From Escherichia coli (lineage in GTDB: Bacteria > Pseudomonadota > Gammaproteobacteria > Enterobacterales > Enterobacteriaceae): a stretch of DNA of 64,000 nt. How positions within the stretch are numbered: the stretch's first letter is position 1; each line of letters opens with the position of its first letter. This document shows, piece by piece, positions 6,449 through 18,311 of this stretch. A program made the translations under genes and the position numbers. The DNA lies in assembly GCF_022846255.1 (NCBI RefSeq), contig NZ_AP025682.1, one strand, 5' to 3'. Below the pieces are notes generated by a model. The model saw only the letters and a list, made by a program, of their open reading frames with translations. It searched no databases and was not told the origin of the DNA.

Positions 6449-7171
6449 TTAAACGATGCGGCAGGCATCGGCTTCCCAGCGGTAACCGACGCCGTAAACG
6501 GCGCGGATAAATGACTGTTCGGCGTCGAGAGATTCCAGCTTGCGGCGCAGGTTTTTAATGTGGCTGTCGATGGTACGGTCAGTTACCACGCGGTAGTCGT
6601 CATAAAGATGGTTCAGCAACTGCTCGCGGGAGAACACTTTTCCTGGTTCATGAGAGAGCGTTTTCAGCAGACGAAATTCTGCAGGCGTCAGGTCAAGCAT
6701 TTTACCGCGCCATGAAGCCTGAAAACGACCTTCGTCGATAATCAACGGGCTTTCAGCATCCTGTTGCTGCAACTCACGCTGCGGTTTGCAACGGCGCAAA
6801 ATGGTTTTGACGCGCGCTACCACTTCCCGTGGGCTGTACGGTTTGCAGATGTAGTCATCTGCGCCAATCTCCAGCCCGAGCAGGCGGTCGATCTCTTCGA
6901 TTTTTGCTGTCACCATCACGATCGGAATGTCAGAAAAACGACGAATCTCCCGACACAACGTCAGGCCATCGGTGCCAGGGAGCATCAGATCCAACAGGAT
7001 CAGATCCGGTGGTGTCTGGCGCACATATGGCAGTACCTGATCGCCGTGGCTGATAAGCGTCGGCGCATAGCTCGCAGCACGCAGATAATCAATGAGTAAC
7101 TGTCCCAGCTTCGGTTCATCTTCCACGATCAAAATACGCGGTGTGTTTTCGTCGATTGGTAACTCGGTCAT
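6449..7171 (-). CDS. baeR: OmpR-family response regulator BaeR
   Basis: 240 aa; receiver domain ([11 protein letters not shown]...[11 protein letters not shown]) plus winged-helix output domain; overlaps the baeS stop. Confidence 0.95.
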
Positions 7172-8571
7172 ACTTCTCTCTGTAAATCCCGTTCCAGCGG
7201 TAACTCTACTGTAATGCTTACCCCGCCAAAAGGCGAATGGGCAGCAATAATGCGACCATTATGTGCTTCAACAATGTTCAGGCAAATCGCCAGCCCCAGC
7301 CCGGAACCGCCGCTGGCTCGGTTGCGGGAGCCTTCGGTGCGATAAAAACGTTCAAACAATTTTTGTAGCTGATCGTCACTGACGCCCGGCGCGCTGTCGG
7401 CAAAGGTCAGGCGCACCGTTTTGTCGTGCTGCTCGGCAGAGATTATCAGGCTACCGCCGCTGTCAGTGTAGCGCAGGCTGTTTTCCAGTAAGTTATTGAA
7501 TAACTGCATTAAACGGTCGCGATCGCCAAATACGGTAATACTGTCTGGCAGGGAAAATTGCAGTTTCAGGCCACGGCTGGCGAATCGTTCGCGAAATGCG
7601 CCGCCCGCCACTTCCAGCAGTGGGATCAAATCTACCGGTGCTTTTTGATAGGCGAGAGCGCCTTCATCAGACATCGACAACTGATGGAGATCGTCAACCA
7701 GTTTGGTCAGTGTACCGACCTCCGCCTGTAAAGACGCCACCGTCTCCGGCGTGAATTTACGCACGCCATCCTGAATGGCTTCCAGTTCACCGCGCAGCAC
7801 CGCTAATGGCGTACGCAGTTCGTGAGAAATATCGGCCATAAAATCGCGCCGCATTTGCTGGTTTTTCTCCAGCGTGCTGGCAAGCTGGTTGAAGTCTTGC
7901 GCCAGTTTGCCCAATTCATCTTCACTGGTGGGCGTCACGCGAGTAGTGAAATCGCCCGCTGCCAGTTTGTGTGTACCGTCCACCAGTCGTTTGACCGGAG
8001 CCAGCAAACCGCGCGCCAGTGGGAATGTCGCCAGCGCCGCTAACAAGGTAGATAAAGCGACAATCAGCCAACTGGTTTGCCTCTGTTGTCTGTCAAAATT
8101 GATATCGGTATTGCGGGTCAGTCGTTCAACAGGGGAGGCGATCACCGCACCCACTTCCGCCCCATTGACCATAATGGGCCGCCGTGTGCCGTCTGGTGGA
8201 ATCGGTGCTCGCGGGCCAACCAGCACTTTGTTGTTTTGATCAACCACCCAGAATTGCGTGCGCCAACCGTGTGGCGGCATACCGGGGCCGGGCTTATCTT
8301 CGTTGTTATCATGCTCCAGCGAACGTAGGATCTGAAATACAAAGCGATCGTTATTACGCAGGAAGCGCCAGTTCCCGTGCTGGGCGTACTGCTCACCAAG
8401 CGCATCGCCGAGCATTTGCAGCCGTTGTTCATTACCATGCTTGATGTAATCAATAAAGCCACGCTCAAAACTGATACGCACCGCCCAGTGCATACTGATC
8501 AGCAAGACAATGCAGGTGGCGAAAATCGCCAGAAACAGTTTGCCGGTAATACCGGGTCGCCAGAACTTCAT
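7168..8571 (-). CDS. baeS: envelope-stress sensor histidine kinase BaeS
   Basis: 467 aa; two transmembrane segments, HAMP, H-box ([11 protein letters not shown]) and HATPase domain. Confidence 0.95.
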
Positions 8572-16000: not shown

Positions 16001-16184
16001 CTGGATAAAGCGTGACCACCTGAATGGTTGGATAGTCCACTTCCGGCAGCGCCGAAACGGGCAGGGCGCGATAACCGATAATCCCGGCGAGTAAGATCGC
16101 CACCATCAGCAGCGTGGTGGCGACAGGACGCATAATAAACAGGCGCGACGGGCCGCCTGTGCTGCTCGGGGGTAACACCTGCAT
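13062..16184 (-). CDS. mdtB: RND multidrug efflux pump subunit MdtB
   Basis: 1040 aa AcrB-like RND transporter, paralogous to the adjacent MdtC. Confidence 0.95.
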
Positions 16185-17431
16185 CAGGAGCGCGCTCCTT
16201 TTTTCGCGTATTCGCGGCTGGTGGCTTTATCTTCCGGGGTAGTGGCGCTCTGGGCTTCCACGACTTCCACTTTCGCCCCTTCGGTCAGGCGATCAATGCC
16301 GTCCGTCACTACGCGGTCGCCCGCAGAAATACCTGCACGGATCACCACTTTCTGACTGTCCTGAATGCCCGGTGTCACCAGATGTTTGCTGACTTTGTTT
16401 TCGCTATTCAGTACCCAGACAAAATGGCCTTCGTTGCCCATTTGCAGTGCGGCGGTGGGGATCACCACGGCGTTTTGTTCGGTATCGACTAACATGCGAG
16501 CGTTAACAAACTGATTAGGGAAAAGCGCATCATCCTGATTATTAAAGCGAGCTTTCACTTTAATCGTACCGGTAGTGGCATCGATTTGGTTATCGAGACT
16601 TAACAGCGTGCCTTCACTTAACTTCTTCGAGTTGGTGCGATCCCAGGCTTCTACCACCAGCGGTTTTCCGGCTTTTTGCGCCTGTACAACGGTGGCGATA
16701 TCGCTTTCCGGCAGAGTAAAGACCAGATCGATAGGATGCGTCTGGGTGATCACCACAATCCCGGTGGTGTCGCCACTGGAGATTTGGTTACCAACATCAA
16801 CCTGCTTGAGACCAACGCGACCATCAACTGGTGCGGTGATACGGCTCCAGTCGAGTTGCAGCTGTGCGCTGGCGACGCTTGCTTCATCAGCCTTAATGGT
16901 ACCTTCGGTTTCACTGACCAGCGCTTGTTGGGCATCCAGTTCCTGACGAGATACGAGATTGGTTTTTGCCAGTTGTTGATAACGCGCCAGGTCACGGCGG
17001 GCGTTGGCGAGCGTGGCTTTATCTTTTGCCAGTTGGCCCTGGGCTTGTGCTAATGCAACTTTGAACTGGCTTGGGTCAATTTCTGCCAGTAAATCGCCTG
17101 CTTTGACCTGCTGGCCTTCCTGGAAATGTAACGCCATCAGTTGACCGTCCACGCGGCTGCGCACCGTAACAGTATTAGCGGCGGTAATGGTGCCAAGCCC
17201 GGTGAGGTAACGCGGAACAGCCTGTTCTACTGCGGTCGCCGCCTGAACCGGAGCTAATGGGCCGGCACGCATACCACGGCGACCACCCGCTGGCGATTGC
17301 TGCGCTTGTTTCGTCGCCCCAGGGGCTGCACTCTGGGAGTCATTGCGGCCTTGCCAGAACCAGAATGCGGCGATGGCGGCGATAACCACCACGATTACGA
17401 TTACCCAACGGGATTTATAACTGCCTTTCAT
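16184..17431 (-). CDS. mdtA: RND efflux membrane fusion (periplasmic adaptor) protein MdtA
   Basis: 415 aa from ATG at 17431 ([16 protein letters not shown]...). The supplied ORF start at 17578 adds 49 residues upstream that I reject. Confidence 0.9.
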
Positions 17432-17484
17432 CGTTAAGAGTTTCTCTTCCTGAAACGTTTCGCGGAATGATACTAGTGTAGCCA

Positions 17485-17502
17485 GCCAATAAGGGAGAAA
17501 AA
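17485..17502 (-). promoter_or_regulatory. putative BaeR box upstream of mdtA (TTTTTCTCCCTTATTGGC on minus strand)
   Basis: Close match to the recalled BaeR consensus TTTTTCTCCATDATTGGC, about 55-70 bp upstream of the mdtA start. Confidence 0.45.
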
Positions 17503-17669
17503 TGGAGGAATTATGAAACACTGTCGGGAATCGTCTGAATGACGGGCACATTTGCGAGCACGCATCCAGTAATAACACATGAAACTATTTTATCTACGCG
17601 TTAGCGATAGACTGCTTGCATGGCGAAAGGAGATAAGCCGACGATTTCAGCGGGACGCTGAAACGGAAA

Positions 17670-17815
17670 AGCCCCTCCCGAGGAAGGGGCCTTAAATAAG
17701 GAAAGGGTCATGATGAAGTGGATCATCATCGTGGTGCTCTTAGTGATTAGCTACCCAGCATACTAAGACTACCAGGGCGGGGGAAACCCCGCTCTACCCT
17801 CACTCCTGAAAGTAT
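17670..17815 (-). ncRNA. sibA: SibA-like antisense sRNA (type I antitoxin); ends approximate
   Basis: The minus strand carries an intrinsic terminator (aaggcccc-ttcctcggga-ggggctt + TTTTCCGTTT) at about 17675-17704, antisense to and fully overlapping the ibs ORF. The 5' end is not determinable from sequence. Confidence 0.5.
17710..17766 (+). CDS. ibsA: Ibs-family hydrophobic toxic peptide, 18 aa (MMKWIIIVVLLVISYPAY)
   Basis: Translated directly from the sequence; RBS aaggaaagg upstream; characteristic Ibs peptide. Confidence 0.7.
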   Translation: MMKWIIIVVLLVISYPAY

Positions 17816-17994
17816 GCCTTCACGGTCCAATTGTCAATCCGCAGACTTTGCAGTCTGCGATCCTGCCAGCAAATATTCTTTGCGAGTCGTTACGCAATAA
17901 TCACACTTGAAACTATTTTATCCGCAAGTCAGCGATAGACTGCATACAGGGCGAAAGGAGGTAAGCCGAAGATTTCAGCGGGACGCTGAAACGG

Positions 17995-18140
17995 GAAAGC
18001 CCCTCCCGAGGAAGGGGCCTTAAATAAGGAAAGGGTCATGATGAAGCTACTCATCATCGTGGTGCTCTTAGTCATTAGCTGGCCAGCTTACTAAGACTAC
18101 CAGGGCGGGGGAAACCCCGCTCTACCCTCACTCCTGAAAT
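17995..18140 (-). ncRNA. sibB: SibB-like antisense sRNA (type I antitoxin); ends approximate
   Basis: Second copy of the same terminator hairpin on the minus strand at about 17997-18022, antisense to the second ibs ORF. Confidence 0.5.
18038..18094 (+). CDS. ibsB: Ibs-family hydrophobic toxic peptide, 18 aa (MMKLLIIVVLLVISWPAY)
   Basis: Translated directly from the sequence; second repeat unit. Confidence 0.7.
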   Translation: MMKLLIIVVLLVISWPAY

Positions 18141-18311
18141 TATGTCACTCCGCCCTTAGTGTCAATCGACGGCTCTCCGTTCTTGCGAGGCGAATAGCAA
18201 AATTTTCTGCGCCGCCGGGCCTAATTCTGAAAGTTTCTTCGTTTGCTCTTATTTCATTATTGCAATCGGTATGATACCGGACCTCAATAATTCTCTAAGA
18301 AAGGATTTCTT

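Follow-up and report, generated by a model that had tools for sequence, protein, structure and literature searches.

The closest described counterpart of the locus analysed here is the promoter of the mdtABCD-baeSR operon in Escherichia coli K-12, whose BaeR site is said to go back to Baranova and Nikaido in 2002; a BaeR motif reportedly put forward by Yamamoto in 2008 reads TCTNCANAA. Dimers of the OmpR family normally require two half-sites. The pho boxes of PhoB, like OmpR-family class II sites, consist of direct repeats in tandem, spaced with a period of about 10-11 bp, and the repeat proximal to the promoter takes the place of the -35 hexamer; the mdtA control region appears to be built alike. 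The recognition sequences differ (CTGTCAT in the pho box, TTCTCCA-like at mdtA), and the mechanism that we propose for mdtA is deduced from the geometry.

The published BaeR consensus is TTTTTCTCCATDATTGGC (Nishino et al. 2005), as given in the passages of PMC3799227 and PMC3915751 that quote it, and the core common to the published sites is CTNCA (PMC3799227). The mdt-bae operon is among four reported BaeR binding sites (PMC2731931), and the mdtA site has been termed ‘well characterised’ (PMC3160322). In MG1655, two BaeR ChIP-exo peaks lie upstream of mdtA, at 2153931-2153967 (S/N 10.96) and 2153972-2153998 (S/N 14.99), and these are the strongest BaeR peaks genome-wide (PMC7657598, Data Set S2). 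When a baeR mutant of the same strain is exposed to ethanol, the genes from mdtA to baeS are down by log2 -3.4 to -4.6, with mdtA itself at log2 -4.0, or about 16-fold (PMC7657598). The BaeR switch at mdtA is thus already known, from literature of 2002-2005 with confirmation by ChIP-exo in 2020.

Two further K-12 sites are available for comparison. The boxes taken from the fetched promoters of spy (TTTTTCTCCATAATTGGC) and acrD (TTTTTCTCCACGATTGGC) have TTTTTCTCC..ATTGGC in common with the mdtA box, and the consensus of the three sites is exactly the published motif. A second CTCC core is found 11 bp upstream at acrD (CTCCT-N6-CTCCA); at spy, TCTCCA occurs twice, at a distance of 22 bp. The mdtA box differs from both in having C rather than A at position 10 (CTCCC instead of CTCCA); its perfect CTCCA is the upstream copy, 10 bp away. 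The K-12 spy 18-mer (MG1655 1825764-1825781) is flanked, not covered, by ChIP-exo peaks at 1825677-1825711 and 1825823-1825843, and so the peak coordinates in the PMC7657598 dataset are not base-accurate footprints.

The stretch of DNA under analysis, referred to below as the window, is 64,000 nucleotides long. A 1 kb query around the box matches 5,419 of 5,426 complete E. coli genomes, and the best genome matches are 99.5% identical and annotated with mdtA, two Ibs-family toxins and yegL. The window comes from the chromosome of a B2-like E. coli strain that is 99.5% identical to ATCC 11775 and is not K-12. The gene for the 415-residue MdtA occupies 16184..17431 on the minus strand (NCBIfam MdtA/MuxA equivalog, 724 bits), in agreement with the annotation of K-12 and of the 99.5% identical strain. 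By ORF layout and synteny it is the first gene of mdtABCD-baeSR and is followed by mdtB, mdtC, mdtD, baeS and baeR. The end of the operon, inside the window at 6449..8571, thus encodes the cognate BaeS/BaeR two-component system: baeS at 7168-8571 (minus strand; NCBIfam equivalog BaeS, 931 bits against a cut-off of 603) and baeR at 6449-7171 (minus strand; NCBIfam equivalog BaeR, 450 bits against a cut-off of 380). The closest BaeR paralogues by NCBIfam are CreB and PhoB. A program-listed ORF reaching up to a GTG at 17578 was rejected as the start of the mdtA gene. The upstream span of mdtA, which the initial annotation ran from 17432, holds except for a trivial off-by-one: the start codon is the ATG at 17431..17429.

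The BaeR box upstream of mdtA

The feature of interest is an 18-nt BaeR box, TTTTTCTCCCTTATTGGC, on the minus strand at 17485..17502 (-71..-54 from the mdtA ATG at 17431). The initial annotation had quoted this 18-mer as close to the BaeR recognition sequence and had assigned it to mdtA; read from 17502 to 17485, the minus strand gives exactly the quoted letters. Compared with the K-12 mdtABCD-baeSR site, the 18-mer, its position (-71..-54) and the operon are all the same, and the site itself shows no difference. The BaeR motif scores well at this position: TTTTTCTCCCTTATTGGC and TTTTTCTCCATDATTGGC agree at 17 of 18 positions, the sole difference being C for A at position 10. When the window was scanned with TTTTTCTCCATDATTGGC at up to three mismatches, the box was the only match in 64 kb (shuffled sequences lead to an expectation of 0.21). 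To guard against circularity, a leave-one-out pattern made from spy and acrD, TTTTTCTCCAYRATTGGC, was also used with up to two mismatches; again the mdtA box was the only match in the 64 kb window, this time with an expectation of 0.01.

The identical 18-mer is found at MG1655 2153945-2153962, with identical flanks, and over the whole distance from -130 to the mdtA ATG the window and K-12 differ by one base, at -96. K-12 and the window align without indels in this region, so that the two ChIP-exo peaks can be mapped directly to window 17480-17516 (peak_5) and 17449-17475 (peak_6). The first spans the 18-mer plus 8 bases on its upstream side, and the second spans the inferred -10 and start region. 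In other words, existing K-12 binding data, which had been suggested as a check, do cover a sequence identical to the flagged site. BaeR occupancy and BaeR-dependent expression of mdtA, shown in the K-12 literature, would carry over to this strain by identity. Of 5,426 complete E. coli genomes, 5,416 have one copy of the 80-nt control region (17466-17545) with at least 95% identity, and in at least 1,680 the region is identical.

The assignment to mdtA is therefore borne out by a site that matches that of K-12 base for base, lies inside an MG1655 BaeR ChIP-exo peak and belongs to an operon that includes baeSR. Given the motif match and the published K-12 data, the identification as a BaeR box is both correct and already known. 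The explanation that we favor with high confidence, taken as a whole, is that the 18-mer is the operator where phosphorylated BaeR activates mdtABCD-baeSR, and that the Sib/Ibs unit next to it merely abuts. As a control switch, the site governs a clinically relevant operon for multidrug and metal efflux, together with the two-component regulator that this operon encodes.

Promoter geometry and conservation of the control region

Directly upstream of the 18-mer the sequence is TTCCTCCA, so that the region as a whole reads TTC-CTCCA-TTTTT-CTCCC-TTATTGGC. The two half-site cores, CTCCA at 17507..17503 and CTCCC at 17497..17493, are 10 bp apart, and the putative full BaeR tandem site, TTCCTCCATTTTTCTCCCTTAT, occupies 17489..17510 on the minus strand. 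This pair has the form expected of a tandem direct repeat for an OmpR/PhoB-family dimer (core CTNCA), and CTCCA-N5-CTCC (17507..17493) occurs once in the window. A candidate -10 hexamer for the BaeR-dependent mdtA promoter, TAGTAT, is at 17470..17475 on the minus strand, with a 17-bp spacer from TCTCCC at the -35 position. It sits in a block, CTA(A/C)ACTAGTATCATT, that is kept in essentially all of the 79 species compared below. Transcription of mdtA is predicted to start near 17463. We infer both the assignment of the half-sites to BaeR monomers and the -10 and -35 assignments.

Put together, these elements suggest how the switch may work. Indole, copper, zinc, ethanol and tungstate would act on BaeS, leading to phosphorylation of BaeR, and BaeR~P, an OmpR/PhoB-family regulator, would bind the two half-sites 10 bp apart as a head-to-tail dimer. 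The promoter-proximal and more degenerate half (CTCCC) would then occupy the -35 position, 17 bp upstream of TAGTAT. With the downstream half in that position, BaeR could replace the missing -35 contact and recruit RNA polymerase in the manner of the pho box; and because baeSR is within the operon, the same site could also provide positive autoregulation. A simple promoter scan does not call the TAGTAT promoter, as expected for an activator-dependent promoter that has no -35.

The sole sigma-70-like match in the region is TTCAGA-18-CATAAT (17539..17510, minus strand), inside the conserved far-upstream block described below, and its spacing is preserved in other genera. It was not taken for the mdtA promoter, since transcription from it would start upstream of where BaeR binds. 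The match may be coincidental or may mark a second (basal) promoter of mdtA; if active, it would place BaeR at or just downstream of its start.

For a comparison across Enterobacteriaceae, 80 mdtA loci were collected, one genome per species, and the 79 with enough upstream sequence were aligned. Conserved zones in the alignment are -108..-66, which includes TTCCTCCATTTTT; -49..-34, which includes TAGTAT; and the ribosome-binding region. For both TTCCTCCATTTTT (17509..17497) and the -10 block, conservation reaches at least 80%, and mostly at least 95%, in species with and without Sib. The same levels apply, in both groups of the 79 species, to the upstream half-site together with the first 6 nt of the 18-mer. 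The remaining 12 nt, the 3' two-thirds of the 18-mer at -65..-54, are kept only in Escherichia and Citrobacter. This would mean either that the half-site is degenerate in other genera or that the minimal recognition element is something other than the published 18-mer. Conservation appears to run deepest in the half-site TTCCTCCATTTTT 10 bp upstream, a minor refinement of the textbook 18-mer. This upstream location of the deepest-conserved BaeR element is one of two points added by the comparison, and it is useful for motif scans outside Escherichia.

Two alternative readings of the 18-mer have to be weighed against this background. One is that it resembles the consensus by chance, in a T- and C-rich intergenic stretch, and has no regulatory role. 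Nothing beyond the general AT-richness of promoters speaks for this, and it is contradicted by the low expectation in the scans, the identity with K-12, the K-12 ChIP-exo and RNA-seq data and the conservation. In fact it is already refuted by what has been published for the identical K-12 sequence, namely binding in vivo and expression that depends on BaeR, and we give it practically no weight. The other takes the critical BaeR element to be the upstream half-site TTCCTCCATTTTT (17509..17497), possibly with the -110..-85 block, and regards most of the 18-mer as a lineage-specific -35 or spacer sequence that aligns with spy and acrD by chance. Several observations lean this way: conservation is near-total over -78..-66 and weak over -65..-54 outside Escherichia and Citrobacter, and the perfect CTCCA, a match to the CTNCA core of the published sites (PMC3799227), lies upstream of the 18-mer, while the 18-mer itself has CTCCC. 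However, 14 of 18 positions, ATTGGC among them, are common to the three K-12 sites, far above chance; peak_5 spans both halves; and a dimer of the OmpR family would normally need two half-sites. This second reading is a possibility to keep in mind, though we consider it rather doubtful, and the tandem site that includes the 18-mer remains the preferred interpretation.

Further upstream, at 17516..17541 on the minus strand (-110..-85 from mdtA), is another block, CATTCAGACGATTCCCGACAGTGTTT, that is conserved in species with and without Sib. It holds a direct repeat, TTCAGAC / TCCCGAC (tandem TYC-N-GAC), whose 10-bp period is typical for dimers of response regulators. The block is outside the BaeR ChIP-exo peak and is not a CpxR consensus at up to two mismatches. 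CpxR has been reported to enhance BaeR-dependent expression or to co-activate mdtA, according to the statements cited in PMC4846824 and PMC9600279. A search for the CpxR box GTAAA-N5-GTAAA at up to two mismatches gave no match in 17432-17580, the nearest being at 17879-17893 in Sib unit 2. The CpxR ChIP-exo data obtained under ethanol show no peak at mdtA (PMC7657598), and mdtA is not among the entries in the supplements of the CpxR PSSM paper. With neither a motif match nor a ChIP-exo peak, a CpxR co-regulator site in 17432-17580 was rejected.

The Sib/Ibs units beside the mdtA control region

In K-12, the QUAD/Sib pairs sibA/ibsA and sibB/ibsB lie between yegL and mdtA. The window likewise has two units, with like neighbours in like order. 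Unit 1, the one nearest mdtA and the equivalent of K-12 sibB/ibsB, spans 17551..17839; unit 2, the sibA/ibsA equivalent, spans 17879..18167, with its Sib RNA on the minus strand and its ibs ORF on the plus strand. The two form a direct repeat with 86% identity and a spacing of 328. Each contains a full-length minus-strand match to the Rfam SIB_RNA family, at 17837..17695 in unit 1 (137 bits) and 18165..18023 in unit 2 (141 bits), where the gathering score is 56. The Sib antitoxin RNA of unit 1 is placed at 17666..17801 (minus strand), its ends having been transferred from the K-12 sibB annotation. A strong terminator hairpin at approximately 17672-17688 is followed by an interrupted U tract, UUUUCCGUUUC. 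The ibs toxin ORF of unit 1 is at 17710..17766 on the plus strand and translates to MMKWIIIVVLLVISYPAY; that of unit 2 is on the plus strand at 18038-18094 (coordinates read by hand), with the translation MMKLLIIVVLLVISWPAY. An Ibs toxin is annotated at both places in ATCC 11775. Each unit therefore combines a SIB_RNA with an 18-residue Ibs ORF antisense within Sib, as expected of a Sib/Ibs type I toxin-antitoxin pair.

The adjacency of sibB/ibsB and mdtA is real and is already standard K-12 annotation. The toxin locus is divergent from mdtA, as the initial annotation had it, since ibs is on the plus strand and mdtA on the minus strand; the Sib RNA, itself on the minus strand, is co-directional with mdtA and upstream of it. 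The statement that the box lies within about 100 bp of the first unit is right for the edge of the repeat unit, which is 48 nt away, and wrong for the 3' end of the Sib RNA (163 nt) and for the ibs ORF (207 nt to its ATG at 17710). For the ibs promoter, a -10 element, TAGACT at 17608-17613, is proposed by eye, by analogy with the published length of ibsC mRNA (about 160 nt), and would put the ibs start at an estimated 17620 or so. Inspection by eye upstream of TAGACT gave no convincing -35 candidate.

How sharply the repeat is separated from the mdtA control region can be judged from other Sib loci and from other species. The alignment of seven Sib/Ibs units from four loci comprises the two window units and K-12 sibA to sibE. 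All seven units end in C[TA]CGCAAA, beyond which the sequence is locus-specific; in unit 1 the end on the mdtA side is this shared motif, CTCGCAAA, at 17559..17552 (minus strand). In the species that have Sib by mdtA, CGCAAA is followed by some 10 non-conserved bases before the first conserved block of the mdtA region begins. The presence of Sib was scored in the 79 species with nhmmer, using the unit as query against the 2.5 kb upstream of mdtA. Sib was found beside mdtA in 33 of them (Escherichia, Citrobacter, Pseudocitrobacter, Kluyvera and a few others). In the other 46 (Enterobacter, Klebsiella, Raoultella, Lelliottia, Cedecea, Buttiauxella, Atlantibacter and others), the search detected no Sib within 2.5 kb. 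Conservation of the mdtA control region (-108 to -34) is equal in the 33 Sib-bearing and the 46 Sib-free species. At the K-12 sibC and sibD/E loci, and within the window's own units, no BaeR-like box was found, the best matches having 6-7 mismatches.

Regulatory space shared by the toxin locus and the efflux promoter, as had been proposed, finds no support in these results: Sib units have one and the same boundary at all loci, the linker is not conserved, conservation upstream of mdtA is the same with and without Sib, and other Sib loci have no BaeR-like box. The stronger form of the proposal is that the BaeR site, or mdtA transcription driven by BaeR, also controls Sib/Ibs, either by divergent-promoter or supercoiling coupling to ibs or by read-through from Sib into mdtA. 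The short distance between the box and the edge of the unit (48 nt) would suit it, as would the divergence of ibs and mdtA, the direction of the Sib RNA towards mdtA, the interrupted U tract after the Sib hairpin, which makes some read-through conceivable, and the constant position of the unit relative to mdtA in Escherichia, Citrobacter, Pseudocitrobacter and Kluyvera. Against this, each unit has its own promoters within boundaries that are the same at every Sib locus, and the box is about 115 bp upstream of the estimated ibs start, too far for ordinary class I or II activation. Nor is there an entry for sib or ibs, by gene name or b-number, in the BaeR ChIP-exo and differential-expression tables of PMC7657598, in which small RNAs were possibly not scored. 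No paper linking sibB/ibsB with BaeR or with the regulation of mdtA was found in the literature searched, the sole co-mention being in a source-tracking paper, where the ibsB-mdtA intergenic region serves to mark the host source. Shared control of this kind is improbable in our view. In its concrete forms, there is a slim chance that read-through of the imperfect terminator by the abundant Sib RNA, or supercoiling that couples the ibs promoter to BaeR-driven mdtA transcription, lets envelope stress shift the Ibs/Sib balance or lets Sib transcription set the basal or occluded activity of the mdtA promoter. If true, this would tie a type I toxin-antitoxin repeat functionally to an operon for efflux and stress response, in a position fixed since before the split of Escherichia, Citrobacter and Kluyvera.

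The comparison instead points to the Sib repeat and the mdtA control region being adjacent, separable modules that are independent of each other, and this separable behaviour is the other point that the comparison adds. In the mechanism proposed above, the Sib/Ibs unit 48 nt upstream is self-contained, brings its promoters and terminator with it, and simply abuts the mdtA control region.

Where Escherichia, Citrobacter, Pseudocitrobacter and Kluyvera have the Sib unit, its distance from mdtA is constant, with CGCAAA about 10 nt before ATTCAGAC, which suggests a single old insertion. Two Sib units are present in Escherichia sp. E1V33, E. coli E69 and Pseudocitrobacter faecalis, and one in the other Sib-bearing species. 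The Ibs peptides of the window differ from those of K-12 in a few residues: unit 1 encodes MMKWIIIVVLLVISYPAY here, MMKILIIVVLLVISYPAY in ATCC 11775 (99.5% identical) and MMKLLIIVVLLVISFPAY in K-12 IbsB. Residues 4-5 at the N-terminus of Ibs differ between close strains.

Between the two units, at 17841-17860, is a perfect 8-bp inverted repeat, CGCAGACT-TTGC-AGTCTGCG, with no adjacent T run; it is immediately upstream of the unit-1 Sib promoter (TTGACA at approximately 17832-17837). By reading, three copies of TTGCGAG (CTCGCAA on the Sib strand) bracket the two units, at 17552-17559, approximately 17885-17892 and approximately 18183-18190. In K-12 sibC, sibD and sibE, this motif is present only at the ibs-promoter end. 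The three copies in the window look like a junction direct repeat, as would result from, or promote, tandem duplication and deletion of units.
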